DNA from: Bugula neritina
Taxonomy: Eukaryota > Animalia > Bryozoa
DNA: 64,000 nt
Direction of reading: 5' to 3'
Assembly (NCBI GenBank): GCA_964035545.1
Contig: OZ037766.1
Location: 10,282,722-10,346,721 of the forward strand
In this document: in pieces, positions 3,801 to 57,817 of the stretch
Position numbering within the stretch: position 1 is the stretch's first letter
Layout: each line of letters starts with the position of its first letter
The notes under the pieces: model-generated
The model's database searches: none
Told to the model about the DNA's origin: nothing
Seen by the model: only the letters and a program-made list of their open reading frames with translations
Made by a program: the position numbers and the translations under genes

Positions 3801-6800
3801 TACTTATAGCCTATTATGCTTTATTTTAAAAGATATTTCCGCAAAAACATGGCTGTTGAAACCACAGTTAAAATATGAAACATAATATTCAGATGGGGAC
3901 ATTTTTGACAAAATAATTTTCTTTGTGTATTCCTTAGAAAATTTTTATGCAGTATTTATAAATAACAGTTACTATGAATCTTATAAAGAGATGCGCTTGT
4001 GCATAAATTATTCTATATTTCTACTCAGCTAGTTAAAGTATGTCAGTTTTGCACATTTCATCACATCCAGGCTTTTCTGAGTATGCAACTTGCATTATGC
4101 AACACACTCTGGTTTTCAAAAAAAGCTGGTAACTTAAAATAGCCATAATTTTGAGAAAATATCTTCTCAAACGTTGAGAAGAGCCTTTAAAATTCTAGAT
4201 AATCAGAAAAATAATGAACTATATTGGTTTCACTCAAAATAATGTATTTGTAGTAATCATTTCTTTTCCTATGTCAGTAATGAAACTTACAATTGATGCA
4301 AATATTATTTTTAAACCAATTACTGTTAAGATATGAAAGAGTGCTAGGAAGCAAAAAACTTTTAATTGTTCTAAAATTAATAAGCACTTCTAAAAATGTA
4401 TTATAATATGTTTCTGTGGTACTTTGGCTAAACATGTGAGTAACCCCTCTACAATATAATTGTTTAAATTATAAAAGTTCTAGGTTTGCATATACAAGTG
4501 TATAAAGACAGATAGTCTATGATTATCACATGTACTATAGATCTCACCCCCATGATGTTTGAGTTACCCTACATTATCATTGGGGTCCTCCTCTTTGGTA
4601 TACTGATCATCATAGTAGTCTTCATATGCTGGAGGTTAAAAGGGCATCACAAAACCTCTAAATACACCTCCAATAAGGCTTCTTGGCATGTAAACAGCAA
4701 GGATATTGTACTCTTTGAATGCAACGACCCTGGTCTAGAGGATACAAGCAGTCTATACTTACAGGTAGATTTACTTGCCTCTGTGCTAAAGAAACATTCA
4801 CACAGAAACATACTTACATAATAACACATTTTATTATGAGAATTATATTATAGCATTGTATAAGTTTTATGGTCAAGAGTAGGAATAGAAACTATAAGTG
4901 TTATTCTTCAGGCATCAGAGTTTGTGACCGACAGCGAGAAACTAGATGCAGCTGTGAAGGAATTTACCACAGACTTTGGTCACTTCAAGGATCAGCCAGT
5001 TTGTTTGAAAAAAATCATAATAAAAGACTTTCAGCCTACAACTCAGCAAGAGAAAGAACTAGAGCTTGTAAGTTTTGTATCACTATATTGTAAAGGTTAT
5101 AGTTATAGGTTAATGAGCATGTGCACATATATGCATGTGTTAATGTGCTAATGCACTGAAAGTTATATTCTAATTTGCTAGTAGAAATATGTATTCCTTA
5201 TAACTTTTGGTGACTAGAGAATAAAGTAGATGTAAATGTAAATAAAAAGGTGTGCCTCTACTATCAAATATAGTTTGGGGGAAAAAAATTTTTAAGACAA
5301 AATATGCCAATATTTGACTGTCAATATATAGGATGAGTGCATAGCAAAGGATGACATAAACAGATGGACTAGCCTTCAACCTACTTCGTATAAAATATAC
5401 AGTGTATAAAATATACAGTGTATAAAATACCTACATTGTATATAAAATACATTGTATATAAAATACATTGTATATAAAATACATTGTGTATAAAATACAT
5501 TGTATAAATTGCCTACTAATGATGCAAGAAGAATGTCTCTAAGCTAGCAATATAATATCAAGACTGTACTCTAATATTTCTGCTGCAGATGGTGGGCACT
5601 CATCATGAGAATCTCGCTACATTCTTTGGAGTGTGTATCAAACCTTCCCACATACTGCTGATCACTCAATACTGTATTAAAGGAAGTCTGGAGGTAAGCA
5701 ATTTGCTCCATATGTTGCATGTGTTGCATTAATTTTCAGATTTTCTTACTCTGATATTGTGTTACAGTGTTGCTTGTTATCAAGCTGACATTTTTAAACT
5801 TTGTCTTTGTACAATACAGGAGATTTTTCTGTTTGAACCGGTGCATATGGATGAGACCTTCATAGCATCTATAGTCATGGACATTGTAAGAGGAATGACG
5901 TATATACATAAGAACTGTCAACTTGGTGTCCATGGTAATCTTAAGAGCTCTAACTGCCTTGTCACTGGTAGATGGGTTGTGAAACTCTCTGGGTTTGGTC
6001 TCTCAGGTTTACGGACTAAGCACAGGGAAGACAAAGGTATAACACTACATGAATAAAAACTTTTATATAATGTTGGATATTACTACAATAAGCAAAACCT
6101 CATAACAAGCAATTAACTTAAACAAATATTTAATGTCGCTTCCATTAAAGCCGGCATTGCAAAAATATATACTATGCAGCTCTCGTATTTATTTACAAAT
6201 TGTTAAAAATTAAATAATTAATTAGGCATTAAAGTAAAGTTAGATATTTTATCATTTGTTTTTTATAAACGGAATATAATATTTAAATTACATAAGTTTC
6301 TTCCTTATTATAAATTCCTTGTATAGATTACTTAAAATATAGAAATAAGCTGTGTGATGACTGTGTACTTAATGTAATTACCTGCAGATCAGCTGTGGTG
6401 TGCACCTGAGGTGATCAAACATTCAGAAGTTGCTTCTCAAAAAGCTGATGTATATTCCTTTGGAATTATACTGTATGAAGTGATTGGAAAGAGGGGGCCC
6501 TTTGGGAAAGGCTATGCCTTTTCAGTTCAAGAGCTAGAAGGTATGTCAAAATAGTATATGAATTAAAACATATATAAAAAACATTAGCAGCACAAACCCT
6601 CTAAAACATAATGCATATAGTGTATTATAGCATATAATAAGCATTCCATATAAAAACATGCAACACACTCTGAAAGATCGAAGGTTTTAGCTCAAAATTT
6701 TCTTTAATAAACATTTCAAGTGTGCTTCAAGTGTTTTTATTGACAATAACTTTTCTATAGTCAAACAGTTGCTATTCCTTGAGTTATACAAGTCAACAGA

Positions 6801-9800: not shown

Positions 9801-12454
9801 CATGAATTAAAGAGTATCACTTTGAATGAACAGCAAAAGTTTTGTTTCTGCCACATTTGCTTATACACACATGTGCTTGCAATGTACTAAATTTCATGTG
9901 TTGCCTAATTGCATTGTTTTCAATCAACAAAAATTGGAAACAATTTTTCCCTTTTTTTTCATAATTGGTATTTCATGTTATTTTCTTCATATTTTACTTA
10001 GTTGGTTTTTTAGTTGTTGACAACCTCAGAATTGTGCTGCAAAATGCTTTAGCCAAAGAAATTACCTATAGATGGATTTGGAGAGTATTTACTTAGGCAG
10101 TTGCATATTATTATCCACTTCTTTACTAAAACATGTAGGTTTCAGCTTCCATGAAATAATCTTTGTAATTACATATAAAAATTGTACAGCGTAGCTCATG
10201 TAATAATATGTCCAGTTATTTGATAACCAGTGTACATGTGATCCCATATGGTCTAGGGGTTAGGATTCCTGGTTTTCACCCAGGCGGCCCGGGTTCGATT
10301 CCCGGTGTGGGAACATCTTTTTTGTTATTTTGAAGAACAAAATTGTCATATTGTTTGTATTTTTTTAGGTTATTCGGCTGTTAAATGACCTTTACACACT
10401 TTTTGATTCGATTATAAAACACTATGACGTGTATAAAGTAGAGACAGTTGGTGATGCATACCTTTGTGTGTCTGGTTTACCAAGACCAAATGGAGATAGG
10501 CATGCTGCAGAAATTGCATTGATGGCTTTGGAATTCATGCAGTCACTTAAAACTTTCCAAATAAGACACACTGTTGATATCAAAACAGAATTGCAAATGA
10601 GAATCGGTAATATGCCATCTACAGAGAATTTTTGTGTGCGCAATACATTTATTCGATAGGATAAATTTACTGATATTTTGTATCTTAATTTGATGAATTT
10701 AGCATAATATGGTTAGCATAGAAACACAAAATATGGTTATTAAATTAAATTGCATTATTTCACTTCAGGGATTCACTCTGGACAGTGCGTAGCTGGTGTA
10801 GTGGGGGTTAGCATGCCACGATACACTTTGTTTGGAGACACTATCAATGTTGCATCGCGATTGGAGACAACTAGTGAACGTAAGCATTCACTAATGACAT
10901 AGCTAATCAATTATTAATAGCACTCAGAGTTACAAGTTACAACATATTGTAATTGTATATGTGTGGATGCAGTGCAGCCTATACTGCAACAAGGCACACA
11001 TGTTGAAACACTATTGTAATTTGTAAATGATAGATTTGTGCCACTATAAGAGTGTAAAACTAAAACAGTATATATCATAAATTGCATGAAATCACACAGT
11101 TTGCTCTTTAAGGCTAAAACTCAAAATAATATCATTCTACCAATACTAGTAAAAGTTACTGACTATGGACAATGATTTGATCAGCAAGGACTCTCAACTT
11201 TAAGACTGATGTGGTTGAAAGAATGGTTTTTCAAGGCTGATCATGACACTGTCAGAATAGACATCTGTCTGAAGCATTAATAAACTACAATTTGTATATT
11301 ATAATAACACAAGACACTTATAGATCATAAATATGCTTTTGATAATTATTGTCCCAGTATTTTATTCTATTGCAGCTATGAAAATACAAATTAGTCAGGA
11401 AACAAAAAATCTGTTGGACAAACAGGAAGGAAGTTTTACATGTGAGAAAAGAGGAGCTGTTGATATAAAGGGTAAAGGTGTGTGATCTAGTTAAAAGAAA
11501 ATAACTTTAAAATAATTGTATTCTTGCCATGGAATAATGACTGGTTTCCCAAAGTATCCCTCTCAGCTCCACCAGTTAAGACTTGGAAATAGGTCAGAGT
11601 TCATCTTAATGATTGTGGTCAGTTTCAACATGCCAATTACTGCTTTCCTATGTTCAACCATTGTAAGATGATGAACTAAATATGCTAAGCCAAATTTCTT
11701 AATGTGTAGCCTTTACATAAGAGAAGACAACTACACAACATTCAATTAGACAAATGGTTGCAGTGATCACAACTTTCAGATCAAACTGGCTAAGGTCGAT
11801 CTGAGGTCGACACATGAGAAACCAGTGAACGGCTATGAATCACTTTGAAAAAATTGATATGCTCACTATCTACTTGCAACAGCATCCTTACTACCTATAA
11901 TACTTTTAACTTATTACTAGAAAATTGTTTTTAATTATGCCTGCATTTTTTGGCCACATACAGGGAATTCCAGTATAGTTCTAGAAATCTTCTGCTTCTG
12001 TGTAGGTGAAATGCTAACTTGGTGGCTCTTGAGTTCATCTTCCCTCCTTACTACACACATGAACTACACTCAACTGTCCGTAATAACAGACACTTTACAG
12101 CTACCAGGGGCTTGTGGTGAAGGTAGTCGCCCATCAACATCCAGCAGTGATGTTGAAAATATGCTAAGGACAACTAGGCAAATCCGATCAAGAAGCAATT
12201 CAATCAAGTCTCACAGCTCTTCATCAAAATCTGCTCAAACGTTTCAGCGAGCAGGCTCTTTTAGACAAAAGATTAAAAGTGAATCTCTTAGTTCTGAAGA
12301 CAATATTGCTAAAATGGGAGGAGCTCCGTCACCAGGTCTAATGCCCATGAGCGAAGAGAAAGTTAGATTACTAAGCAGAGAAAGATCACACAGCCCGAAA
12401 TCATCTCTTGTTGCACCTGCTAATATAATCATACAAATTGACCAAGCCATGTAA
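897..12454 (+). CDS. Receptor (single-pass membrane) guanylyl cyclase; 5'-partial, multi-exon
   Basis: Phase-compatible GT-AG exons: 897-1045, 3136-3226, 4541-4764 (TM helix [20 protein letters not shown]), 4912-5067, 5589-5693, 5820-6036 ([10 protein letters not shown]), 6388-6540 (LWCAPE...[12 protein letters not shown]), 7353-7518, 8498-8641 (coiled coil ending LLHRMLP), 8976-9099 (FFSDICGFT), 10369-10606 ([10 protein letters not shown]), 10769-10879 ([31 protein letters not shown]), 11376-11477, 12006-12454 ([11 protein letters not shown] then a Ser-rich tail). This is the TM/kinase-homology/cyclase layout of NPR-like GCs. The two upstream-most exons are less certain. Confidence 0.93.
5388..5508. 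repeat. ~16-bp minisatellite (TATAAAATACATTGTA-like), about 7 copies, intronic
   Basis: Tandem units gtataaaatatacagt / tataaaatacattgta are directly visible. Confidence 0.85.
10242..10313 (+). tRNA. tRNA-Glu (TTC), inside a guanylyl cyclase intron
   Basis: TCCCATATGGTCTAGGGGTTAGGATTCCTGGTTTTCACCCAGGCGGCCCGGGTTCGATTCCCGGTGTGGGAA forms a 72-nt cloverleaf with anticodon TTC and a GGTTCGA B-box. It closely resembles the standard animal tRNA-Glu(TTC). A T-run terminator follows at ~10318-10323. Confidence 0.97.
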
Positions 12455-13314
12455 ATGTTCTGTGCAATACATTTACACATAAGATTTTATTACAGTATGA
12501 TTTTTTTCAAGTTCAAGTGCACCAAACTACATACTTAGGCTGAATAGATATAAAATTGTTTCTTTAGCATCTTATAGGCTTTATTCAAATACACAGTTTC
12601 AAAATTTTGTTTTCACCATTAAAATACTATCATACAATTTGATGAATATAATATACTGAAATACTAAAGGTAATGTTTATAGAAGACAATTCTCACTAAT
12701 ATTCTTATTATTTATAATTATTCATTTTGGCGTTGACTAACATAACCTATTATACAAGCATAATACAATATGTTGAATTCAGAATAGCATTTTAATGATC
12801 TAACATAAAAGTTTGCTAAATAACAGAGCACTATAAGATTTGTTAAATTTAAATGGTAATAAGCTAAGACTTTGAATTTTTTTAAATGAGTACTAAAAAA
12901 TTGACTACCTAAAATGCTATAAATTAATTGGCAGCCTTATCAAAAAAGAGTTAGCAATAGCATACAGATTGCACTGCTTTTACAGTATAGAAGGTAAAAA
13001 AGCTACAAATTGTAAAATGTGTTGCTTACGTAAAACTGCAGCACATGGAAAAATTCACTGCTATTCCTAGGATCTTAGTCTAAGAAATATTAATAAACTC
13101 AATTGGCTTCCAGTGCAATAAACCTGAAAAAGACCCCTTGAATAGCAACCAAATCTCCAAGAGTGAAACAGCATTTTCAACGGTGTTGGCAAAAACCTTC
13201 AATGGAACATAAATCAATGATACAAATTTAATCTACAATCCTTTTAAATACAGTTTTGAATTTTATGCATTGCATATATTTGTCAGCTAGCTCAACACCC
13301 TGATAATTTGTGAA

Positions 13315-16300
13315 CTATTTTTTCTTGTCGGGTTTCTTAGCGGGTTCAGGAAGATCTTCCAGCACATGAGTAATAAAACCAGCCATATCTGGAGATGCTG
13401 TCTCAGCAGCACGCAACAGGTCAGTTTGGAGTAAGGCCTGGTAGTTGGGTCTTTGATTAAAATCTTTTGCAAGGCTACAAAAATACACCCAAAGAAAATC
13501 TTTCGGAGTAGAATGGGAAGAAAAACTATTGCCATTATTAAGAACAATGAGAAATCTTATTAGCCAACATTATGATAGTCTCATTTCAACAGGACGAGGG
13601 CTGGGTGATGGGACAAGGAGACTAGCCCACAGATGAGAATATGACAGCTTGAGATGCAGAGTCAGAATGTCAATTTAGTATTGGGTCTAAGTTATAGAAC
13701 AAACCCAGCCAAGTTAGACCGCTTATTTTCTACCGGACACTTTACAGATCTAGGGCTAAAACCAAGGATCTTACAAGCCCACATAGAATGTTTAATAAAA
13801 ATAAAACATGACTGGTTTAGAGATATAACATCAATTCTACTAACCAGCTGTCAACAAACTGTACAAACTCTGGTGAAAAGCCAGTGTCGGGTAACTTCGG
13901 TGGTGGATCATGTACTACCTGCCTCAGCTGTTCGAAAGGTGTGGGCCAATGACTGTATGGGAACACACCTGTAGAGATCTCAATCTGCAACATATAGTAA
14001 TGGCACAGCCATGTCACATGGAGATATTATATCGTAAATAATGAAGATGAGTTGAAAATAAATTTTCTGAGAAAGGTTATACAGTGCTCCTTCCGTATCT
14101 CACTAAGCTGCGGGTTCGAAACCTCAATTCGGACATAGTAGAATACCAGATTTAACTCATGGATTTTGTTTAAATTCGGCCACTTTGTTCCTATACACAC
14201 ATGCAGTGCATAAGCCACAAAACGAGGTTCCAAGCCCTTCTTGTAACCTATGGAATTTAGCGAGAAATGGAACCGTGAGATATGGAGGGAGCACTGTAAT
14301 AGCTAATACAAGGTTTGGAAATCAAGAAGTGAAAATGACATTGGGTAAATATTTAAGAAGTATATTATTAAGTGAAAGGTTCCAAACCACTCACCATAGA
14401 AATACCTAGACTCCATATATCCGACCGAATGTCAAACCCTTTACAACCAGGTGGAGGATTGATTCTTTCAGGCTGGAAAAGTGAGGTGGCAGTGACAATG
14501 ATTACACAGACTGGTGGGCAATGAATGAGACAATACATTTTTGACATACACTACCAAGTTTAAATATAACAGTAGTTCACAATGTAGATGCTCTAGCATA
14601 CAAGCTAGTCAACCAGACTGCACCACTCAACAACCTATTTACTCTCCAAATTTCTAGAAATTCACAATAACCCTGTTTCATATACACATGCAAGTATTAA
14701 ATTGAACTTACAGCCATGTATGGTTTACACCCAGCGTCTGCTGTTTTAGCAACAGAGTCAATCAACTGGCCACTAATTCCAAAATCACACAATTTTATTT
14801 CTCCCTTTTTGCTGGCTAGAATATTCGATGGCTTTACATCTCTGTGCATGACGTTCAACTCTCGCTGCAAAAACTTCAATGCCTTGACGACCTACAACAC
14901 CAAATATGGAAACTCTGTACACCTGATCAGATGCCGCACTTGGTTGAGATGTTGTCAGGAAACAGAGACCAAGAGTGAAGATAGCACAGTATGACTCAGG
15001 GGTAATACATAGATTACATGCATTACAATCTTGCAATTAACTGCAAAGTTATTAATGAAAAGTTACTCTAAAACGCCAGATTGGAAGTTTATTAAATACA
15101 TGAAGTAACACAACATTGCAGCATTTAGTCAAGACATGTAAAGTTAAAAGTGAGAATAAGCATCTAAATCAATGCTCAGATAGTTGAAACAGCACTAACA
15201 ATGTTGAAATGAAGCTATATCTAATTTGGGTTGACTCAATGTCCCATCTACACCAATACTTACGCTGAGTGATATATTAGCTAAACAAGGTTCGGGAATC
15301 GTCTCTCCAGCAGAAAAAACTCTTTTGTAAAATTTATCTAATGAACAATCCATAACCTCCATACAAATCCAAACATCTCCCTGAAACACATGAAAATCCG
15401 GTTCAAACTATGGTTGAATGTGTTTGAAACTTTACCGAGTGAATGAAAAACACTAGCAAAAACAAGACATTATTTTCATCACATTTGATAATATTGTAAA
15501 AAATGCTATTGATTCAAACTGAACAATGTTTTCATTTGAAATTAAGTTCAAACTATGTACAGAACACATAATTTCTAATTAGATGCAAACCTTAAGCAAA
15601 ATGGATTGATAAAATTCACAGCTTTTTATTAAAACTGTCTGCAAAATATGGCTGTCAAAGTTGAGATTTGTTGATAATTAATTGGTTGTTTTTCTTATAC
15701 CAGGATATATAAACTATTCAATGAATGCGCGGACTACCTTGGACTTTGAAAACTAGCCATTAAGGTATTGGCTTACTCACCTCCCTAAACATAGCACCGT
15801 AGAAATGTACTGTATAATTACATGATCTGCTTCTCATTGACACATCTAAATCCATCAGCATTCTCTTCTCCTCTTTATTGTTCACTGTTGCTCTTATTCT
15901 CTGCAAAACGCCCACATCTTTTCTAACCAACTTGTGTGTACAGCCACTTATATTTTTAGCTAGCTTGCCAACACACCAGCATTAGGTACACTTATCAATA
16001 ACAGTAGACTGCCAAAAAAACACATTTCATCTTCCTAGTCACTTTCTCAACCAAGTCATGTGCTTAAGTGATATTTTCATAACTCAAGACAATCTAGAGG
16101 ACAAAGTCAAGCTTGACACCCCAAGCTGCTCTATTAAGTTCAACTGATGATCATTTTATAATGCCTCCTCAAACTCAACCAGCCCTACATCAAGTCACAT
16201 ATTTCGAGTACCTGTAGCAAGCAAAAAGCCTGTGTGCCAGCATTCACCAGGACCTACTAGTATTGGTAACCTGCCAGCATTCTAATTGTATGGCAGTAGG

Positions 16301-17358
16301 GTTTTGGCATCATTTATTTTTTGTGACTTTAAATTCTAATCAAAGTGCAGTAAAACTTAGCAGTCGAAAATGAACAAAAGTCTTAGAGTTGTTGTGTTGG
16401 ATCAATGCTATAAAATTTTCCTTGTTTTCTTCAATGAAAAACCTAAAACTTGTAGTTATGCATAAAATCTTTGCTGTTTCAGACATTTCCCAGTAGATCA
16501 TAAACACTACTTAAAAATATCAAGATAGATGTGTTGAACCCAAGAATTTCTTTTGCCAATATTATTTTACTATTGCTACAATACTACTGACTGATGTGAT
16601 ATTATGGCTAATAAAATCCCGTTAGACACTTTAAAATCAGATGCTGTAATTCTATCTATATGCACACACATTGCAAATAAATTATTACCTGCCGGTTTAT
16701 AGGTTTGAGTAGTAATAAATATCTTCATTGGACATGAAGCACACATATCATGCTGAAACTCAGAAAGCCATCACATACATGGCCACAAGCCATATAGAAT
16801 TTAGTGTTGAAATACCATGGATGTGCGTTATTTAAATTAGCTCCTTACTTTCACAGCCATAATGGTTCCAGAAGGAGTATGCCTCATTTTTTCTACAACT
16901 CCAAATGCACCTCTTCCAAGCTCTTCTAGCTGCTCCAGGTGATCTGCTTCGCATTCGATAGTGTGAGAACCAATGGTTATGGTTGTGTTGGAACCTAAAT
17001 TCGTGCTGGAAGGCCATAAAAATACTATAATTATACATTTTCTAAATAGACTTGGGAAAAAATTCATATCCATTTTTGGATATGAATTTATTTTTAACTT
17101 ATTTCTATTTCTAGATCTCAATGTTTCATTTTTTATTTTAGCGCCTAGATAAGAGTAAAAATTGATATATTAAAAAAATCAGTTGATGGTAAGTAAAGTT
17201 TTGTGAACTGTGTTAACAGTATCTTACCTGTCTATTTGCTTTGCAGGCTCCTGGACTAAAGGCTGCAATAACTTAGGACCTTTACGAGGTTTCTTCCCGG
17301 CTGAAGAAGGTGCTGGGCTGTCTCCAGCCGTTGGTACGATAGGGCCATTAACATCCAT
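13315..17358 (-). CDS. MAP2K6: Dual-specificity MAP kinase kinase, MKK3/MKK6 (licorne) type
   Basis: Exons (-): 17358-17228 (docking-like [13 protein letters not shown]), 17005-16849 ([18 protein letters not shown]), 15900-15781, 15380-15264 ([11 protein letters not shown]), 14891-14712 ([11 protein letters not shown], activation loop [13 protein letters not shown]), 14472-14395 (PERI..SDIWSLG), 13984-13845, 13474-13315 (stop TAG). SVAKT is characteristic of MKK3/6. The symbol denotes the MKK3/6 orthology group. Confidence 0.95.
14082..14296 (+). mobile_element. Tc1/mariner-type MITE (family A, copy 1) in a MAP2K intron
   Basis: TIRs CAGTGCTCCTTCCGTATCTCAC / GTGAGATATGGAGGGAGCACTG are flanked by TA on both sides. 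A homologous copy lies at 25738-25931. Confidence 0.85.
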
Positions 17359-18549
17359 TGAAATTGTAGTAGCCAGTTCTTCAGGCACTAATAAATTTAA
17401 CAAGTAAAAATAGTGAGAAAACCTTTTTGCTAAACTTTTTAAAATAAATAGTTATGATAAACTACATATGTAGATAACATATACATGACCATATTCGCGA
17501 GTACAAGTAATTTAAACATGGAACCAAAGAAGATAACATGAGCGAGTGAGACTACAGTGAAGTAAAATGCTTACATACCAAAATGTAATACTACAGTTTC
17601 ACCATTGCCACTAAAACTGATAGCTTGACTTGTACTATTATCTTGCTCACTGAGTGCTTATATTCCACCGGAACTAAAATATAACATATTAATGAAATGC
17701 AACCTTGAATATTTATAATCTAGATTCCAAGACTCTGATGTTACTGATACATATTTTTGTCACTGGTTAGAAATAACTAGACTATCACTTCAAGAAATGA
17801 AAATTTTATGAATTTAATCGAGAAAATAAGTAAGTAGTACATGAGATGCAATAATAAATCTTTACCTAAAAAGGTAAATTCTACAATTAATTTAGTAGAA
17901 ATAAATTCCAAATTTCAAACGACTGATTCACTATAAATTTCAAGAGATATTAATTGAATACTTGAATTATGACTGATAACCTAAAAAAGATTCTGAGGAT
18001 GAATAACTAAACTAAATACATAACAACAAGGTATATTTCAAACAGAGCAAGTTTATTGAATAGGGCTAGATAAATCCCCATAGTGAACTAGAATATGAGA
18101 GGTAGATGGAGAAAATATTTCTTTATTTCTAAAATTAAAGACCAAAAACTTTTGATTTTCTTAAAAGAAAATTTATAATCATGTTTTCCTCAGCATTCAG
18201 CTTAACAACTTTATTAAAGATCGAATATCGGGTACTAATGCTAACACAGTGACTTTCACTTTGAGTTGTTGAGTTAAGAACTCTAGGGAGCAAATTAGTA
18301 TTTTCATAGAGTTGCTTTTAGTTTTTTAAAACAAATGTCCTTCTAGCAGAAAATTTTACAATTGTGAGAGCAATGCATAATTATAAATATTAATAATTAG
18401 AATGGCTATTCTATTTATAAACTATCAATATTAAATCAAACAATATATACAGTATATTGATAAACTAATAACAAAAGAGGAAAAATTTTAATTAATAATT
18501 ATATTTTACCTTTACTTTTAGCATTAAAACTCAAATTAAATTTTAATTA

Positions 18550-19300
18550 GTCAAATAGTAATACTTATACTATTACTATTAGTGTTACTGTTAGCAAAAA
18601 AGTTTTACTAATGGTAATAGTAATAGTTTCAGTTTGATAGTAATACTTATAGTTATACTAAATCTAAACTGAAACTCTAATGATTTAATTTTATGATATT
18701 TATATGGATATAATTAAACTTCAAATTCAATTCAAATTGCAGGAATACTATTACTAATTAATAGGAATACCAATAGTATAATACTGATAGTTATACTTAT
18801 ACTGTTATAGTAATAGCCAATAGGTATAGTGTCAGTCACAGTGACTACAGGCTGAGACTAGCCCTGCTCTAAAACTAAATGAAAAAGTTAAACATTCAAA
18901 TTCAAATTGTTATTGCGATTGACTGTCGACATCCACATTGACTCATTCAGTCATTGTATTGTGATTCAGATCCAGATTGAGTTCGACTATTGACTTTGAG
19001 TGTCGTACTCATTGAATCAGTCATTGAGTTTGACATTCAGTGATTTACTCATTATGATTATCCTACACTTACACCAGGACTTTCAATATCATACTGGTAG
19101 TGATAGTCATACTGATACTCATACTGATACTCAAAGTCAAAGTCAATTGTCATACTGATACTCATAGTCATAGCCAATGTCATAGACTTAGAGTCATAGT
19201 GATAGTCATAGTGATACTGATACTCATAGTCATAATGATAGTCATTGTGATTGTGATTGTCATTGCAACAGCGTCAGTAATTTTCACATGCAAGTAAAAT
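18550..19300. repeat. Degenerate 6-bp-periodic simple sequence ((G/C)ATA(C/G)T and variants), left of the MKK/tweety island
   Basis: Example: gatagtcatactgatactcatactgatactc at ~19100. It generates the spurious IVILIL ORF. Edges are fuzzy. Confidence 0.85.
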
Positions 19301-19379
19301 GTTATTTTTTATTGATATGCAATACAAAATTAGCAAGTTACACTAATCAAGGAGTTTAAGTCAGTATTTTAAAACAAAA

Positions 19380-19650
19380 AGCAAAAGAACAGTGTTGTAC
19401 AACTACATGCAACTTTCTTATTTTGGTACTTTTCGGCCGGAAACGGTAAGACTTACCGCAAACTCTCGATTTGTAACATTAATTTATTGCAACTTCTAGA
19501 TTAGTCGATTTTCTGTATAGCGATCAGTCTGCTTAAAAAAGCCTAATATATGCGGTCAATATGTTTTCGTATATCTGTAGCAATGTCATTTAAAGCAATT
19601 CAAGTGGAGAGATCAATGTAGACTTTTTGCGATCTCTTCACCTCAGCAAA
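19380..19650. promoter_or_regulatory. Putative bidirectional promoter / first-exon island for MAP2K (-) and tweety (+)
   Basis: Non-repetitive, CpG-retaining stretch between two divergent genes. It has an ETS-like CCGGAAA motif and consensus splice donors on both strands at 19446 (+) and 19456 (-). Confidence 0.55.
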
Positions 19651-19839
19651 CCAAGGGGTGATGAATAACAGTAAACAATTAACATAGTGTTGGGCTTGAC
19701 ATATGTCATATCCATCAACTGATAACTAAGCTGTGTAAATCTAAATGTAACAAGTTCGTGTCACAAAGCAAAAGGTAACGGAATCTCTAGTTACTTAGTC
19801 TCATATCAAACATGATATCAATTATTATATCAAAGTTTA

Positions 19840-21180
19840 AAATTGCCGTTATGATAATCAAAATGATAATCATAATGAAATTGAATACGATAATCACAAT
19901 CACAATGAATGAATGATATTCATATTCATATTGATAAAGATGACAATTATCATTATGATTATGATTATCATAATCGTAATAAAGATAGGAATGATATTTA
20001 ATTTATTAATCATAATAATAATAATAATTATAATCGTAGCCATTATGATTATGATTATCATTATGATAATGAGTTTATCATTATCATTATGATTATGATA
20101 CTCATATGATTATGATTATGATACTCATACTCATAGTCATATTTATAGACTAATACTGATAGAGTCATACTCATAGGGATACTGAGTCTGATACTCAGAT
20201 AGACCATAGATGATAGTCGATAGTGATACTGATAGTCATAGTATGACTGATAGTCATATCGATGCTTAATTTTATACTTTTAGTTATAGTGTTAGTGTTA
20301 TACTAAATCAAAATGAGTAAATCTAATACTCATACTGTGATACTGATAGTGATACTCATACTCATAGTCATACTGATACTCGGTCTGAGTCACAATATCA
20401 TACTGTTACACTTACTATTACTATTAGTATAAGTATTGGTATTACTCATAGTCGGAGTCATAGTCATTCTCATACTCATAGTGATCATCATCTCGGTACT
20501 AATACTGATAGTCATAGTGATACTGATAGTCACACTCATAGTGATAGTGACATACCATGTTGATATTCATATTGACCCTGAGTATCACATCAGTATGACT
20601 TTAAACTTTGAAGTGTATGAGTATCACTGACACTAGTAGGCTACTAATAACAATATTAAAAATAAATGTAACAGTAATACTTATACTAATCACTTATTAG
20701 TATCATTGCGTGACTTCTTCATCTTGGGATTGTCATTAAACCTAAAATTGCAATTCAGATTCGTCATTCATATGATAATCATTTAATTTGATAAATGAAA
20801 AGCGTCATCCTGATGTACTTCTAGTCCTACTGTCTCAATGTGAGTCTACTAGTACTACTATCAGTCTAGCCTTTTTCTTTTGCTCGGTCATTCTGGTTGT
20901 AAGTTTCTTACTAACTGTTCAAAAATATCTGTTCAAGTCTTAGAGTTAGTCTACTAACAGCAACAGTCACATTGTCATTGTTTTATATTAGTTGTAATAT
21001 TAATAATTATATTACCTATACTTATAGCCTATAAGTATAGGTCATTTGTACTAGTAATGCTCATACTGTATTATTAGTGTTACTACTATAACTATTGGTA
21101 TAAGTATTAGATTTAGAGTTGATATCATAAGACTGACTTTAGCCGTAGGTATAACACTTCAACAGTATGAGTATAGCTAG
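19840..21180. repeat. Degenerate 6-bp-periodic simple sequence, right of the MKK/tweety island
   Basis: Runs of gattat/cattat/gataat followed by gatact/catact/catagt/gatagt. It generates the spurious ORF 20436-20630. Confidence 0.85.
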
Positions 21181-21655
21181 AAGTAGATGTGCATAAGCTA
21201 CTTGAAACTGAAATTAATTAAAACTGATTTTTTTTCTTTTAGTTACATTACAAGGATAATTATTCTTATGGTGATAATAGTATTGAAGAGGGTCATAATT
21301 TTCTGAGTTAAACTTTACGACTAATATTTGATGCTATGTTATGTTAAGCTTATTATACTTGTGTATTTAAATTGTCAATTAATTTTGTTCATGTAATATT
21401 ATTCAGTTTTCTTAATTTTAATTTTGTTTTCTACAGACCCACTGCCATTTGTTGTTGTATAATTGTGATGGTATCTGAAGATGTAATCTTTGATATTCTT
21501 TAAATGCATTAAAAGCATTTGCCAAGCAACTACTGGCTGATGTAGTGGCAGTTGAGTATGTACAGTTCTGTTCTTTGATAAAAAATTTCATGTTGGATTA
21601 TGTTGACTTGCTTTTATTTTAGAGAGCTCAGTCTGCAAGCCACTGAGAGATAGCA

Positions 21656-24600
21656 ATGGCTGTTGATATAGGAGAAACCATGTATTACAATATATCTGAA
21701 CTGGTAAAATTTTTCCATTCCTTTCCTCACTATGATCTGCAGTTTGACCCAATTGATCCAAAGTTTGATCCTGAAAGCCAACCATACTTACAGGTTTGTT
21801 GACTGAATTCTAGAGTTTCTCATTAGGAACATATTTTACACCACTTCATGCTACTTTAACTGCTCTACTCTTTAATCTGCATACTCAGGCATTCTCAGGC
21901 TTTTCATAAGTTGATTTCAGTTCAGCTACAGTGAGAAGGAAACCTATAAACAGGTTGAGATTCCAATTAGCTCAGAGCTAGTCCCTTGTCAAATCAGTTT
22001 AGTGGTGGGCCATACCCAAATTGACGTAGTAAGAGTAGGCTGCCAGCTGCCCTCCTAAACTTGTATTGTGTTACTAACCAGTCAAGAAAATAGTATGTTG
22101 AAACACAACTGCTAAGGTATCAGTATTTTGCCCAATAATTCAAATTATCATTTTAACTTCCAGAAGGATAAAGTATTGCAATGTACAACTGTAAACGTGT
22201 ACACAATTACAATATGTTATTGAAACGAAAGAAAATTTATTGATGCTTTTATTTAGAAATAAAAATTTTATTCATCATCCTAGAAGTGTAGCCTCTACGT
22301 CAACACTAAATGGCAGCAATAAAATTTCTTAACATGAAGCATAAGATAAGGTGACTAAATGATAAGTTGAATTGGTTGCAGTCAGACTGGAGTTGATAAT
22401 ATCTGCGTGTCTGATTCCCTCCAACTGATTGGAACCGGTAGAAGTACACAAGTCATAAGCCACCCAGAGCAACTGGAAAACACATATATATATTATGTAT
22501 TTTCTAGGAGCTTACAAATTTGCTAAACTTCTGATTTAGTATTTCTGCCCTAGCTTATTGGTAACTTAGGTTTTACTGCAGATGATGGGCTGGAATTTCT
22601 GTAATAAGCTTCATTTTTTCTGTCTGTATACACACATGATATTGATCAAACTTTATTGTTGTAGTCTGTAATTGCAATAAGTGCCCTATGATCCTTATCA
22701 TTTATTGTTATTCTAGAGTAAATTGGTTTACCATTGCAGTGATAACCTCTACATATTGTTTATACTTTATAGCATTCTGCTAAATCATATACTGGTACCA
22801 TGACCACCAAAGTATCATCCGAAACTTGTTGAAAATTTAATGAGATTGAATGCTATTTTAACTCCAACAGCATTTAAATTTTAGCAGCACAAACAGCCAT
22901 GCTCAAACTTTCGATTCTTTCGGCTAGAATAGCAAAATATAGTGATTTCAAGTTGGTGCTATGTTGTTGTAAGACTTCATCCCAAAACATAATCTTTGTC
23001 ATATCAATAGATGTGTTTTAAAGGTAATTTTAATTTTTATTTGTAGTCGTTAATGCTAGTAGCAGCTGTGCCCGTTTTGTGGATGTTATTATGGATCTTA
23101 ATATATCTGGCCTACTTCTGTTATCTCTGTGTAACATGCCGAAAAAACAGAGTTGAAAAATCAACCAAGTCTCCCCAACCTTCCAGATGGTTCAGCTTCT
23201 TCTTCTATGTGCTTGTCATGTGAGTTTTCAACCATTGCTTAAACTTTGATACTTTTCTTAGACTGTAATGATCAATGAGCTAAAACTTCCTATTTATATT
23301 TCAATGGTAATAATGACTTTTCAACAAGATTTAACGTTGTTTCGGTTGTAACTAATGTGTATTTCACAATGCTTTCTGTCCAACTAATCATAGAACTGAC
23401 TGGGTTCACCACAAAAGATATTGCTTGCTGATTTCATCCCAAAGTCTATTTAAGTACAGTTGTTCTATGGGCATAACGTAATTTGAATGCTATATAAATC
23501 AAATTCCCCATTTTGGTGAATTTGGGTTGAAAAATGCAGTTAGCTCATTGGTAAACAGAGCCACTTAACTTTTTAATATTTATCAAATGCATGTGTAAAA
23601 TTATGAGAGATGACATATAGGAAAACCATTTGCATCAAATGTAATTTGAACAATTTGTGTTGTTATGTAGACTCCACCCTTAGGCCTTATCTTCTGCTTC
23701 ACCAAACCCACCCTGATGAAGCACTTATTATTGCCAGGCAATGTGTTTTAGGGCAAAGTTTCCGCAGTCTAGTTACCAAATGATTTTGTTAGAAATATTG
23801 ACACTCATTCATTTGCATTGCAATTCTTTAGATTGATGATCACTGTGTCATTCTACAGTAACGAAGTTATAGACCGTAATGCACAGTCAGTTAAAGACAA
23901 TCTTCATAAAATACAACTTCATACAGGGAAGATACAGATACAGGTGACCACTTTTTTTAGTCTTTGTAACTGCTGGCCATGTTAGGATTGTTACATTAGT
24001 ACAACTAGTCAGTCTACTATACACTACTTGTCAGTGTACTATACACTACTTGTCAGTGTACTATACACTACTAGTCAGTGTACTATACAACTGTTGTACT
24101 CAGTTCTACTTGGGCATACTACTCGAAATGTAAGTGTTTTACCAGCAGAAACCCCATGCCAAAAGTTTGTTTCGACATGAATAGAAATATTGTTCACCCT
24201 GAGTCATCCATATTCCTATCAGCTGTAAATCACATCAAGGGCAGAAAGCCATGTTCTGCTAATCATTTACTAGTCATTTGACGTCACTTAGTCATAGCAG
24301 TAGTTGGCTATGAGGGTATCTCATAGTCAAGCAGTCTTCTAAGTTCTGTAGCCAATCCTTTTCTATTATATCCTGACTGAGCCTCGTGTCAGTAGTTCAC
24401 ACAGGCATTCATTGCATCCTTGAATCAAGTATGAAAAGTATATTGGAATAGTGTGCACTCCTTCCTAGTAATGTTTAGTTGCTGCTGTAAGCTGTTGTGG
24501 GGTTGCTAAACCCCATGGTGAAGTTGGTAAGCAATGAACTGTAGAGTAAGTGTCACCACTGTTGATGATGGATCTCTGGCAAATATGGTCGTCCTGGCAA

Positions 24601-41200: not shown

Positions 41201-41919
41201 TTTGACAACCAAATATTACCTTTTGATACATTTCCAGGACCATCTGATAGTATTACCCACGGGGCAACTACATTTTCCACTATTTTATACACAACCCCAG
41301 TTCTATCATCAACTGTAATTATATCTTCATTGTAAACAACAAGCTCCGACAACTCCATACCACGACCTCCTAAAATAAACCAAAAACTCGTAAAAGACAC
41401 ATTTTTTAAAATACTTTTCATCACCATTTCACTTTAAACCAGAAACCCACCTTGTGCAAGAGAGTTATACAGATCTATAGATTTGGAATCGAATTCTACT
41501 TTAAACTTGTTATCTTTGCCAGCAATAAGAAATCCTTTTAAGTAATGGCTCTGCCATAGACTGTTGTCCACTTTAGAGCCATGGTCTAAATCAGTGATGA
41601 CAGCTATTCTGAACTTCCTCCCATTTGCTGTTGTGATTGGGGCACTAAGAGGGTATTTGTCACTATATGAAGGTGGTTTCTTTAGAGGAATAACTTTTCT
41701 TTCACCTAAAGGAGCGCTATGCGTATATATAACTAGGCCAACGAAAACTACTGCAAACAATAGAAGACATATTTGGATGACATCTTTTGGACGAAGGTTA
41801 ATGGAAGAAGCTCCAACTCTGTAACGAGTGGGAGTAGAGATTGCACGCTGCCAGTCGTCCATTTCCTTACTATCTTGTAGCCTTGTTAATTCTTTAGAAG
41901 ATCCACGACTTACAATCAT
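38216..41919 (-). CDS. CANT1: Calcium-activated nucleotidase / apyrase (type II membrane)
   Basis: Exons (-): 41919-41451 ([12 protein letters not shown]), 41369-41220 ([25 protein letters not shown]), 40965-40880 ([14 protein letters not shown]), 40513-40396, 38592-38216 ([34 protein letters not shown]). These are hallmark CANT1 motifs. Confidence 0.96.
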
Positions 41920-42461
41920 GAGTGTAATTTACTGGAGAGTGGTTATGTTTCTAAAAGTACATCAATAACACTGCATAAAAAATATAACATTAAATTTCTA
42001 CTAAATAAAATATAGAGCAATTGGGCCTAGTCATCTTTTGCTGATAGGTATAAGCTGCTCCTCAGCCATTCACAGTTTTATTTGCTAGCAATATTGTTCC
42101 ATCAGCTCAACCCAATAACAACACCTAATATTAAATATAAATACTCTAGCATACTTTATGTAGCTGACCCAGTATGCTATGCCAATAACTTTCAGATTCA
42201 GAAGCAGGTTTCTATCAGCTTCTTTTATGCTTGCAGGCAAAAACTGAATAGGAAATACTTACATACACTGGTATAAATACAGAAATACAGTTCGATAGGA
42301 AAAAAGTAAATAAAATTATTAAGTGTATAAGGAATCGAGATGGAAGTCTATATAGAGTGTACTACTATAAAACAGTTCTTGAGTGGTAAAATATGATGGA
42401 TGCTAATATTGTGCCCAATTAAGTGTCAGCTTGGTTGATTGGGTCCCACAAATTAGACTTA

Positions 42462-42875
42462 GCCTAGGGCCACACTGTGCGTATTTTCGCACGCGAAAAT
42501 TGAAACCACAAGTAGCAAAGGTGTCCACTGTAGCATCAGTGAGATTGGAAAACTACTAGCTAATAATATTTGCGTTTAACTTTACTGCTCGCCTTGTTGC
42601 TATAACTACAAGTGCGGGATAAATGAAGTTTTCATTTTTAAATCGCACTCGCTTTCAATAAAACGCAATTTACTGAAATGTAGCACTAAAATAAAGAAAT
42701 TGGGCTCGCTAAATAACTACCAGCCAATTAGGTGACGACGACAGAGACGATTCGCACTTGCGTTCAGAATGCTGAGCGACAAGTGCGAATGTTTTCTCAA
42801 CGCATACAGTGGACACCTTTGCTACTTGTGGTTTCAATTTTCGCATGCGAAAATACGCACCGTGTGGCCCTAGGC
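42462..42875. mobile_element. PIF/Harbinger (Tourist-like) MITE, 414 bp
   Basis: 71-bp TIRs (42462-42532 / 42805-42875) with 2 mismatches start GCCTAGGGCCACAC. A 3-bp TTA duplication lies at 42459-61 and 42876-78. The interior is non-coding. Confidence 0.9.
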
Positions 42876-43429
42876 TTAGCATGAGGTCAATTTACTGATG
42901 GTAAATGTAGTTTATAGAAACAAAAACATGATCTTTTAGTTTTCATATTTTGTTAGTTAGCTAGATGATGACTACTAAAAATATTCTAACTTGTCATGGC
43001 AAGCACTACTATTGGAAATTATTTATACCAACAGCTGCTGCACATATATTGACTAATAATGCTCTCTATTTATGTTCAGCAATGACATTGTGTAATGCTT
43101 GGAATAATGCAATGTTTGTTATTCCTAAGTTACGTAGAACCTCTGATTTCAATCCACACAACATTCCATTACGTATTGGCAACAACATTAATTTCGTTCA
43201 AGATGTGGTTCACGGTGCTCTACCCTGGGCTGTTAAGGAGACAAAGTTTGAATTACTGTATATGCCCCAAACAAATAAAATGATGCAACCTTGCCAATTT
43301 TCTACAATATATCATTATCTAGAAAAAATTTATGTTTTTAAAATGCACAAGTGGGCTAAAATAAAATAAACAGCCCATAACATACTCATTTATTTAAAAC
43401 TAGATCACACTACAATTTATACAATAAAC

Positions 43430-44260
43430 TACATAACTAATAGTAATAACTATAAGTACTAATAACTAACATCTACACAGTAAATACTTTGTAAGTAACA
43501 GTAAAATTATTTTCAAAAGTAAGACTAAGAAGAAATTGATACAAGTCTGATACTCAAGTTAGACAAGATTATGAAATTGAGCAAAAAGTAAAATGTAAAA
43601 TTGATACTTTATACCATTAAACTTAGTAATACGAATGGTGCATTATTAGAACAATATGGCTTATATTTTCATAATAGTACATGTAGAGCAAGACTAAGAC
43701 TACGAGAATGAACAAGTTCAAGTTATTACTTCATAATTGTCACCATCATGATGATAATCATACTTTCATAGTAATAGTGATAGTCTATTGCTACTAGACC
43801 TAACACTATGGGTATCAGTATGGTTATCACTGTGACTATAAGTATAATGAGACTGAGAGCATACAGTCTACAGCTTATAAATATAAGCACAAGTATACTA
43901 TTATATTTAATTTTACAAATATGACTTATTATTAATACTAAATCTAGAATCTAGAACTAGAAGCTTTAGTCAGTACACCTAGTCCTAGTCCAGGAAATAT
44001 CAGGTTAATTTGAATTATCAAAATGAATGTGATACTGATACAATGTCACTGACAAAAAAATTGAATGAATGATGCCGAAAGTAACTATCACTAGCCTTAC
44101 TAGCACTACTAGCACTACCACTACTACTACTAGTAACACTAACTAGCCCTACTCCTAGGGATTTGTCCAACAGTAACAATACCAATATCACTTTCAATAT
44201 AAATATGAATATAATTATAATACTTAATAGTGAAGATGAATAATATTAATTCCTAACTCT
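43430..44260. repeat. Degenerate 6-bp/3-bp-periodic simple sequence upstream of the CANT1 coding exon
   Basis: Runs such as gataatcatactttcatagtaatagtgatagt, actact and tagact/taagac. Confidence 0.75.
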
Positions 44261-44447
44261 AAGACTAGTTACCTCCAGTTACCTCCAGATTACGATCATG
44301 CTAGACCACTAGGTAGCAGAAGCGGCATGCCTCATATGTTTATGGTTGGTCAGAAAGTAAAATGCATACAATAGTCCATAAATTGGTTGCAGTGTGTGTT
44401 GCAATATTGTTTATTAGTACAGGTAAGTTAACCTGTCAATGTTTAGA

Positions 44448-47222: not shown

Positions 47223-48211
47223 TCCCCCGAAGGAGATTTTGTCTGTATTCTCATATTTCTTATCCGATAGTCAGTTTCTTGGTCAGTGTCACTGTTTTCC
47301 CCTTTCATTCGCTTTATCTCTTGCCGAAGGGCATACTGCTGGTCACGAATCTCTTTGCATTCATCAAGTTTGCAGTAGATCTTGCGTCCACGTAGTGTAG
47401 CATTTGTTCTTTTTAGGAATTCCCACTTTGAATATTCGTCTGGAAATTCTATTTTAATCGGCCTTGGTTTGTTTTTGTCAACTGGTCCTGAGGTCTGTAA
47501 GCGTATTGCTCTTAGGGGTTTCGGAGTTGCATGAAAAGTATCACTCGTCATTAAGTCTTTAATCATCTCCAGTGCGCTTTTACCTTCCTGTTCATCTATG
47601 CCATAAAGAACGGCATTATTTTTCCTGTTTTCAGTCTCCCGTTGTTCAATACTCTTCTTCAGCAGGTTTCGAGCACTGTCGCTGATCTCCATCCCTTTCT
47701 TCAAGTTTTCAGTATTTGACTTTGCAGCGTCGGCATATGATTTCTCTAGTTTTGTCATTCTTTCTTCAAGGGCAGTGTTTGTTGCTCCAATCTTTGCATT
47801 AAGTTGTTGCATTATGTCTTCAATTTTATTAAGCTTTCTTGAGTGGGTGCTGTGAAGCGCAAGAGAGTCTTCACCATTGTTGTTCACCCTGTCTCGGCCT
47901 TGAAGAGAAGCTTCAATGACTGGAAGGCATGTGTTGCAGAACCATTTCACATTCTTTTCATCCATTTTGTCTAGCGTAGCAACATCTGAATTGGTGAGGC
48001 TTTGGCAGGTACCATGGAACCAATCATCACAAAAATCACATTGGATCCACTTAGCACCAAATTTTTGAGAAAGGCCCCTTGTATTAGTAACATAGCAATC
48101 GACATTGTTACAAGTTTTGCATTCTGGGTTGGTTGAGTCTTTGTTTTTGTCACTTTGAGACTGTTGTGATCCTGGTTGTGGTTGGCTTTGAGTGTTCCGG
48201 GCACCAGCCAT
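47189..48211 (-). CDS. LINE ORF1: PHD finger, coiled coil and RRM-like domain
   Basis: CKTC...WIQCDFCDDWFHGTC...WFCNTC is a C4HC3 PHD finger, followed by a heptad region and RKNNAVLYGI...PRPIKIEF. The first ATG is at 48211 (the ORF track starts at an upstream TTG). It overlaps ORF2 by 34 nt. PHD-bearing ORF1s are known in CR1-like elements. Confidence 0.92.
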   Translation of the reverse strand: MAGARNTQSQPQPGSQQSQSDKNKDSTNPECKTCNNVDCYVTNTRGLSQKFGAKWIQCDFCDDWFHGTCQSLTNSDVATLDKMDEKNVKWFCNTCLPVIEASLQGRDRVNNNGEDSLALHSTHSRKLNKIEDIMQQLNAKIGATNTALEERMTKLEKSYADAAKSNTENLKKGMEISDSARNLLKKSIEQRETENRKNNAVLYGIDEQEGKSALEMIKDLMTSDTFHATPKPLRAIRLQTSGPVDKNKPRPIKIEFPDEYSKWEFLKRTNATLRGRKIYCKLDECKEIRDQQYALRQEIKRMKGENSDTDQETDYRIRNMRIQTKSPSGEWRYMTKQTSV

Positions 48212-48509
48212 CACGGACAACTAGAATCTCGTGTTGTAGTAACAATACAATATAATAATAATTATGTTTATAATTATTATTATTTATAATACTATACTAA
48301 TTCGTAGTATAGTATAGTTATTGGTTTCTAAGATCTAGAGAGCAAAAAGTTACTTTTTGTATGTTTTTGTATGGGGGAAATTTTTTGTATGCTTTGAGTA
48401 TGTTTGGATATGAGGCACGCCTTACCTAAGTGGTGAATTTTGAACCAAATTGGCATAAGAATTTAAATTTTAAATTTTTGCGTCCGCCATCTTCGCGACC
48501 TTGACCTTA

Positions 48510-48950
48510 CTACTAGAGTAAGACTAAAACTAAAAGTCTACAGCAAAAGTCCAAGACTTAGAACTAACTGAGTAACTTTATGTCTAATCAATGATTATCA
48601 TTATTATTGTCATTATCCTTATGATAATGATACTAATTGATACTGATAGAGAACGATAATTGAAAGGTCGCGGTTTGTACAACTACTAGTACTACTACTA
48701 CTACTAGTAGTAGTAGTTGTACAAACCGCGACCTACTGCTACTATTACTGAGTACTAGTACTACTACTAGTTTTATATTTTAACTTTTAAATAATAAATC
48801 TAAGAGAACTCAAATAGAAATAGAATGCCCCTAAAATTTCACCCGTTATTAGTATTACTAATACAGTAATACTTATACTAATACTAATAGTAATATTAAT
48901 AGTAATACTAATACAGTAATAGTAATACTATCGATCATCGTGATACTCAA
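48510..48950. repeat. Degenerate periodic simple sequence between the LINE 5' end and the CANT1/U2AF2 island
   Basis: Runs of gattat/cattat, gatact, actact and aatact/aatagt. Confidence 0.75.
48665..48734. repeat. Perfect 24-bp inverted repeat around an (ACT)n spacer
   Basis: AGGTCGCGGTTTGTACAACTACTA (48665-48688) and its exact reverse complement (48711-48734). Confidence 0.95.
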
Positions 48951-49345
48951 ACTGACTGGCCCTGGATTTGATGACGACGCGGACATAATTTAATAGTTAA
49001 TTTATAGTTAATGCTATAATCACTGAAGTAGAAAACTTTTATAAAATTTTGATTTCACACCTATAATTATAATATTTATTGTTTTGAGGTTTTAGTCCTG
49101 TTCAACGACGTCTAGGCATCAATTTTCTCACCTCCACTAATTTGCGGTGGCCCTTTGCTAATTTGATAATAGCTCACCAGCAAGCCCGCGTTCTACAGCG
49201 GTCGAAGTTTTGCTTAGAAACTGGGCTAACACCGCCATTGACATTCACGAACGCTCTGTGAAAAGGCTTTCCCATTCAGCTCCACCACGTCCACTCACCA
49301 AGGTTTTTTCTTCAGTGAATTTGAGTTTGTAAATAGCCATTGCTT
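48940..49345. promoter_or_regulatory. Putative bidirectional promoter / first-exon island for CANT1 (-) and U2AF2 (+)
   Basis: Complex, CpG-retaining sequence between divergent genes and flanked by periodic repeats. Minus-strand donors TTG|GTGAGT (49298) and CTG|GTGAGC (49177) are present. Confidence 0.5.
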
Positions 49346-49359
49346 AAAATTCTATCTGG

Positions 49360-51719: not shown

Positions 51720-57817
<6,098 letters not shown>

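Follow-up and report, generated by a model that had tools for sequence, protein, structure and literature searches.

What kind of DNA surrounds the short island that separates two divergently oriented genes in this stretch of the Bugula neritina genome, and how did it arise? A first-pass annotation of the window (the whole 64,000-nucleotide stretch) had described kilobases of drifting hexamers on both sides of that island and regarded them as a promoter-flank signature, either functional or left by a mutational process. The periodicity is real: over 18451-19400 and 19701-21250 identity at lags 6 and 12 exceeds background by as much as 0.43, whereas 30 block-shuffled windows nowhere exceed 0.114. 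A left tract of 0.8 kb (18500-19290), of period 6 and ATASTS-type grammar (S = C or G), lies upstream of the first MKK3/6 mRNA exon, and a right tract of 1.4 kb (19790-21200) lies upstream of the first tweety mRNA exon. Between them is a non-periodic island of about 0.5 kb (19291-19789) that is likely a bidirectional promoter. Autocorrelation in the tracts is 0.52, 0.44 and 0.38 at lags 6, 12 and 18 over a flat background of 0.29, and Tandem Repeats Finder recovers mere fragments of them. In the right tract lag-6 identity is about 0.6 near the island and declines to 0.3 farther out, and the left tract is likewise strongest beside the island.

The architecture recurs, as had been noticed, at a second divergent pair. 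Across the whole 64 kb the only other segments above the lag-6/12 null are 43651-44300, 48451-49050, 49251-49700 and 50001-50650, and all four adjoin CANT1 and U2AF2. One tract there (43650-44267) is displaced by a 4.2-kb LINE, beyond which periodicity resumes (48519-49050); two non-periodic islands (49051-49349 and 49591-50069), the likely promoter zone, enclose a further tract (49350-49590), and a last one (50070-50650) lies upstream of the first U2AF2 mRNA exon. The impression that nothing comparable occurs in internal introns or between convergent 3' ends was borne out, no such segment of the 64 kb exceeding the null; a looser composition score flags short pieces at 24007, 27237 and 37063. 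The 2 kb upstream of the 5'-most domain exon of an astacin gene on the reverse strand (58400-64000) hold no periodic tract, which fits a housekeeping-only signature, but the start of that gene may lie outside the window.

Gene identities rest on Pfam hits among 28 chosen ORFs (guanylate cyclase, kinase, Tweety, Apyrase, LINE, an RRM protein and astacin). From their translations we take the kinase gene, on the reverse strand at 12503-17673 by Pfam and RNA contigs, to be MKK3/6 and the RRM gene to be U2AF2. Among named species the apyrase exon is closest to Watersipora subatra (74%, the next matches reaching at most 60%), so that the window resembles cheilostome bryozoans. The LINE (44268-48518, reverse strand) is full-length and intact, with a PHD-bearing ORF1, an endonuclease-reverse transcriptase ORF2, an 8-bp target-site duplication and a 9-bp tail repeat; a YY1-like word lies near its 5' end. 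It sits within a tract, and lag-6 identity across the empty site is 0.54. Other elements include a near-perfect hairpin within a tract (48665-48734; 33-bp arms, 4-nt gap, TAC/TAG core), a MITE-like element at 42458-42879 with 75-bp inverted ends (96%) and very high copy in the sequencing runs, a high-copy short repeat in an MKK intron (14100-14300) with an inverted partial copy near 25809, ordinary intronic minisatellites of 16 and 22 bp (5378-5508 and 24004-24089), and a tRNA gene (10242-10313) within the guanylate cyclase gene. That tRNA was the sole RNA family in an Rfam search of the window, the tracts giving no match. Against the window, RNA contigs carry a 30-bp in-frame insertion in CANT1 (41861) and a 6-bp deletion in U2AF2 (52365), and the 4-5% divergence of the runs suggests distinct lineages under one species label.

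The tracts follow a loose grammar that is blind to the identity of C and G. Units can be written SATAST, and the four variants occur 19, 14, 12 and 9 times in the window. As had been claimed, neighbouring units drift: 36 of 39 adjoining pairs differ at G/C positions, and the 3 identical pairs fall below the 27% expected (p 0.006). Ordinary repeats, taken from the other hits of the scan described below, have 389 of 450 identical neighbours, so the tracts are not conventional microsatellites. In a second genome neighbour identity (44/156 and 37/152) is what independent draws would give. Within the window all 15 SATAST runs lie on the forward strand, but in only four blocks; the second genome has runs in both orientations, and the common orientation reported earlier is a local coincidence rather than a general rule (10 versus 14 flanks). 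Tract GC is 29%, with C and G used about equally; adjoining G/C letters (SS dinucleotides) are avoided (observed/expected 0.54 versus 0.91), and A4/T4 runs number 12.9 per kb against 30.2 in comparison DNA and 37.5 in islands. A G or C stands between one A and one T 3.0 times as often as between two alike (AST plus TSA versus ASA plus TST), against 1.03 elsewhere, and the favoured triplets are closed under reverse complement (ACT 195, AGT 165, TCA 152, TGA 157). Two simpler accounts were rejected: a 12- or 18-bp higher-order duplication, given lag-2 and lag-3 identity at chance, and coding, since tract ORFs read ILIVIV or DTHS and the RNA contigs of the genes skip the tracts. TCT, TGT and TTT are lower in the tracts than in the rest of the window, and as TAT, also a TNT word, is not depleted, TNT depletion as a signature of TOP1 is partial only.

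At the level of sequence, several functions that had been suggested find no support. Nucleosome phasing finds no 10-bp period (lag-10 identity 0.25 against a background of 0.29), and an array of ApT sites finds an ApT observed/expected of 1.08. CpG observed/expected is 0.85 in islands (all window islands; modest, at 35% GC), 0.40 in tracts and 0.37 in the rest of the window; the core is thus CpG-richer, as in CpG-island promoters, and CpG content lends no support to a CpG-free boundary against methylation in the flanks.

Is the signature peculiar to one stretch of one genome? A scan of metagenomes and viral contigs with a five-unit degenerate pattern returned 66 metagenome stretches and 4 viral contigs, the latter being simple or coding repeats. 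Thirty of the 66 stretches come from two assemblies of apparently one animal (41-44% GC) and represent 23 loci; the remaining matches are mostly ordinary repeats, and three others (L023, L049, L054) are long drifting hexamer arrays of another kind from another organism (ACTCAA/ACTCAT/ACTGAA type). On sequence comparison the animal is likely a distant bryozoan, since a GPCR at one locus (L005) falls in a small clade for which Bugula neritina and Watersipora subatra supply the sole named members (33-41% identity); in that comparison three clusters outscore all others by a wide margin. An eIF3a exon gave no taxon, with no named bryozoan in the best 120 of 919 matches.

Gene calls in this second genome come from Pfam on the best-scoring 450 of 1566 ORFs and from six further exons compared with PDB, two of them useful. 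At all 15 assignable loci the tract lies 5' of the adjacent gene, the other eight having no gene call (among them L070, with a match 8 kb away). Adjacent genes include PMS2, TEDC1, two G-patch proteins, polo kinase, eIF3a, a FoP protein, a SAP protein and another kinase, and, in pairs, GT22 transferase with a phosphatase, a kinase with a Surp protein, Sec23/24 with Arf, SARAF with UQCRQ, MRP63 with a tRNA synthetase and eIF3L with eIF4E3. They face away from the tract in 21 cases, 3 of them weak calls (E 4e-4 to 0.011), and toward it in one, the GPCR (p 1e-5). The other four of the six exons, which we take to be parvin, UBA5, DNAJC19 and PRMT3, gave nothing relevant in PDB and were left out of these counts. 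With the window tracts as its sole training set, a Markov model scores as high 56 of 555 bins in the 5' zones of the second genome, none of 284 in gene bodies and none of 613 elsewhere, the 3.5-kb zone having been chosen after the distances were known; among bins without the searched match the figure is 24 of 495 in 5' zones. The tract-island-tract layout recurs, joined by an additional period of 4 (ASTS) in which C and G are again random (the 37/152 above), and the AST/TSA ratio is 4.9, partly circular owing to the training. The tracts are degenerate short-period repeats flanking likely promoters of housekeeping genes in the window and in a second, likely bryozoan genome, and the proposal of a lineage-level promoter-flank signature is supported.

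Beyond the first-pass annotation lie the LINE that splits the second tract, the absence of the tracts from mature mRNA and an apparent foreign leader on that mRNA. Contigs from runs whose RNA label is an automated guess splice all four window genes, and the tracts fall in DNA missing from the mature message (first introns or outrons), 0.4-1.7 kb from the first-exon acceptors and close against the island. In 10 of 10 gene-by-run cases (runs X9, X10, X11 and X17, four genes) the contig starts at a polypyrimidine-AG acceptor, at 17673, 21623, 41950 or 51678, so that these mRNAs have their 5' ends at a 3' splice site, as in spliced-leader systems; run X7 was left out because it covers introns and is unspliced through the CANT1 acceptor. 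Extra 5' letters stand above a matching AG in 8 of the 10, numbering 4 in six cases, 12 in one and 22 in one (counts taken from record coordinates). The 5'-most MKK3/6 exon (17579-17673, reverse strand) has 4 apparently non-local letters in X9 and X17; that of tweety (21623-21793, forward strand, ATG at 21656) has 4 in X9 or 12 in X17; that of CANT1/apyrase (41451-41950, reverse strand) has 4 loose letters in X10 and X11 or 22 in X17; and that of U2AF2 (51678-51750, forward strand) has 4 in X11 or none in X10 and X17. The 12 tweety letters, TAGTTGCATAAA, followed by AG, have no match with up to two mismatches in the 64-kb window (the run being 4-5% diverged, with gaps in the island), are not found in the 70 scan loci and are not present at the 5' end of the LINE; local exon-1 candidates behind the island donors differ from them. 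In six of the 10 cases, which between them include each of the four genes, the contig breaks off 6 nt upstream of the splice junction. This shared break may reflect leader variants with six common 3' letters in a 31-mer graph, the letters being available for tweety alone, and 24 letters would be roughly the point at which a shared leader merges with the contigs of other genes.

Acceptor starts, extra letters and a common break offset together point to spliced-leader trans-splicing, which these mRNAs probably undergo. Against this, short cis first exons can drop out of contigs, and the islands hold putative donor-like sites, some ending in AG (none ending in AG upstream of U2AF2), among them a 15-bp palindrome in the middle of the MKK3/6-tweety island (19444-19458) that is GT donor-like on both strands. 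Among the joints listed, the X9 and X17 contigs leave 19317-19717 uncovered, which by itself says little, given that contigs drop short branches. Regions upstream of the first exons measure 1.6-2.3 kb (longer at CANT1 with the LINE). In the second genome, donor-like words occur in islands of L063 (near 3539) and L020 (near 2208). At L063, an ORF on the reverse strand (1007-2189) resembles the UBA5 N-terminus; it shares its strand with MRP63, begins about 550 bp behind that gene and, should trans-splicing be real, would be a candidate for an operon. The likely spliced leader forms a second lead, independent of the tracts.

What, then, made the tracts? The best explanation, to which we give a probability of about one half, is a mutational footprint that renews itself through direct and inverted copying over short distances in the open, supercoiled DNA beside promoters; of the options raised by the first-pass annotation, a mutational process fits best. 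The islands would be bidirectional promoters, and their divergent transcription would put the flanks under negative supercoiling, which favours nicks and slippage there. Slippage would make and renew the 6-bp (and 4-bp) period, inverted templated copying would turn TCA into TGA and ACT into AGT, and contraction would delete perfect neighbours, so that frame is kept and C/G randomised. Such DNA would be tolerated because it is spliced out as a first intron or, likely, an outron, and a leader that substitutes for the 5' part of many mRNAs would free the region from constraint. Template switching and non-B DNA at promoters are both established processes (PMC5453318 and PMC12887540).

Several observations agree with this account. 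Over 26 hand-delimited flanks (21 in the second genome, 5 in the window) there is no strand bias relative to the inferred direction of transcription, and 0 of 418 k-mer pairs pass correction, which points to DNA rather than RNA. Short inverted repeats, counted without the hairpin element at 48665, number 8.6 and 11.9 per kb in tracts against 3.7 and 1.3 in background; over 5-mer-preserving shuffles they reach z 4.1 and 7.7 in tracts against 1.8 and -0.5, and loops of 1 nt are the commonest class. Seven allelic contig pairs were compared: their tracts carry three 6-bp and two 7-bp indels, and the DNA outside them one each of 4, 2 and 1 bp. The 6n length differences between haplotypes that had been proposed as a check are present, as microsatellite-like turnover in unit multiples, in the three 6-bp indels of one tract in the second genome only; the two 7-bp indels depart from the rule. 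Inverted repeats, tract indels and decay of the signal away from the island fit ongoing direct and inverted copying, and location 5' of genes, the symmetry of the favoured triplets and tolerance of a 4.2-kb LINE inside a tract count in the same direction.

Other observations sit less easily with a footprint of copying. Plain slippage would leave neighbours alike, so that random or less-than-random identity counts against it and requires the inverted-copy and contraction steps. Only 3-bp inversions would flip S inside ATASTS runs, and these are shorter than typical template switches. Of three tract pieces, one folds strongly as a single strand (z -5.0, against -1.8 and -2.5 for the other two). 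The allelic pairs show 6 substitutions within or adjoining tracts, none of them a C-G change, and randomised C/G without observed C-G change keeps alive a second reading, possible though less probable, in which the tracts are a selected DNA-level signal: a protein-read array that tells only S from W, conceivably through the minor groove, or a mechanical property, which would bound the nucleosome-free promoter or license housekeeping or germline genes in the manner of nematode PATCs (periodic An/Tn clusters), slippage supplying only raw material. In its favour, C/G identity is randomised while frame is kept, and SS dinucleotides are avoided, as are A4/T4 runs, in which the islands are rich. Training on the window alone is enough for a model to find the 5' flanks of the second genome, and selection accounts just as well for a grammar common to distant genomes that differ in GC (32% and 42%). 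PATCs are themselves a precedent for functional periodic non-coding DNA, as outlined in PMC4947018. The selected signal would, however, have no fixed motif and no 10-bp period; the window has period 6, to which the second genome adds period 4, only the latter is enriched in AP-1-like sites and only the former in GATA-like sites, and the tracts are indel-polymorphic and in one case split by a LINE.

A role in RNA is improbable. On this account the tracts would carry outron or first-intron signals, branch-point-like or U1-site-like, that aid trans-splicing or protect nascent transcripts, and both their removal from mature mRNA and the resemblance of the units to CTRAY and GTRAGT words are in keeping with it. 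GTRAGT, however, has no sense enrichment (10 versus 8 flanks), CTRAY is rarer in the sense direction (5 versus 17 flanks, p 0.017 uncorrected), and the tracts adjoin the island rather than the acceptors. Tracts also occupy ordinary first introns: at L006 the likely first coding exon is inside the island and the tract begins at that exon's GT donor, and at L059, too, a tract occupies an ordinary intron that follows a first exon, itself likely coding.

The first-pass annotation had allowed that the tracts might be assembly artefacts or members of a repeat family. They are not an assembly artefact: contigs from two runs of other samples (X2 and X4, about 4-5% diverged) span 19204-19878 and 20900-22015, crossing the island and parts of both tracts, and run X1, which may be the source sample, contains 0.80 of the window words. 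Remnants of a promoter-targeting transposon or satellite family are the least probable source and largely refuted, for although each DNA run has thousands of contigs that match parts of the tracts (summed depth 6,000-32,000 versus about 60) and a LINE and a hairpin element lie inside the second tract, the loose ends of those contigs disagree (agreement 0.4-0.5), as expected of such tracts genome-wide rather than of copies of one element, no termini, target duplications or conserved monomer mark or bound the tracts, and blastn among the 30 second-genome loci brought up nothing but allelic pairs and a single unrelated repeat of 360-540 bp.

C/G-degenerate periodic DNA at the flanks of housekeeping promoters is real, recurrent and apparently undescribed, literature searches having returned nothing on bryozoan promoter repeats. 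Nor is a bryozoan spliced leader reported in the literature searched, although an earlier report may exist elsewhere. What joins bryozoa, spliced leader and trans-splicing in the text searched concerns chaetognaths; the main texts of PMC13326412, PMC11789643 and PMC11480708 mention neither trans-splicing nor promoters, that of PMC7576161 does not mention trans-splicing and that of PMC7986045 does not mention bryozoans. If the tracts are only a mutational scar, they would allow active germline promoters to be recognised from sequence alone in a phylum for which no TSS maps were found in the literature searched, and would document, in nature, a mutation process that is restricted to promoters and randomises C/G. 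If they are selected, they would be the second case, after PATCs and in a different code, of periodic non-coding DNA that marks self genes. The likely spliced leader, if true, adds Bryozoa to the animal phyla with trans-splicing and bears on the number of its origins, as well as on the proposed link between trans-splicing and genome scrambling (outlined in PMC12460157; for bryozoan scrambling, PMC11789643). A union of the two leads, in which a C/G-blind periodic S/W code, recognised by some nuclear factor or sensed through chromatin mechanics, marks bryozoan housekeeping promoters and could extend over kilobases because independently evolved trans-splicing removes it from the mRNA, is speculative and on balance doubtful.

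How do the tracts compare with known systems? As short-period repeats they may be likened to the "cryptic simplicity" that Tautz et al. reportedly described in 1986. Promoter-enriched human microsatellites, as presented in PMC3566118, are also short-period, concentrated at gene starts and indel-prone, but they are G/C-rich perfect arrays, whereas the bryozoan tracts are 29% GC with unlike neighbours and interchangeable C and G, and fill up to 1.4 kb on both sides of an island. Nematode PATCs (PMC4947018), which protect genes from germline silencing, are likewise lineage-specific periodic non-coding DNA at endogenous genes whose sequence is not conserved, in a lineage that trans-splices, as the bryozoan would if its leader is real; PATCs, however, are 10-bp An/Tn clusters in introns, while the tracts have period 6 or 4, are low at lag 10, are depleted of A4/T4 runs and are confined to 5' ends. 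Template-switch mutations and TOP1-dependent, transcription-associated indels (as summarised in PMC5453318 and PMC8866115) share the short inversions, inverted repeats and short indels, but those events are scattered and the tracts are kilobase-long, any link to the enzyme being by analogy. Spliced-leader systems in C. elegans and chaetognaths (PMC3730108 and PMC12460157) have mRNAs, housekeeping ones among them, that start at a 3' splice site with added letters, as those of the bryozoan appear to; the bryozoan differs in the donor-like sites of its islands and in that no SL RNA gene was seen, and its upstream regions of 1.6-2.3 kb are at or just beyond the upper end of C. elegans outrons (90th percentile 2099 nt in PMC3730108). 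Lacking what defines either, the tracts nonetheless resemble promoter microsatellites in position and turnover, and PATCs as a periodic mark.
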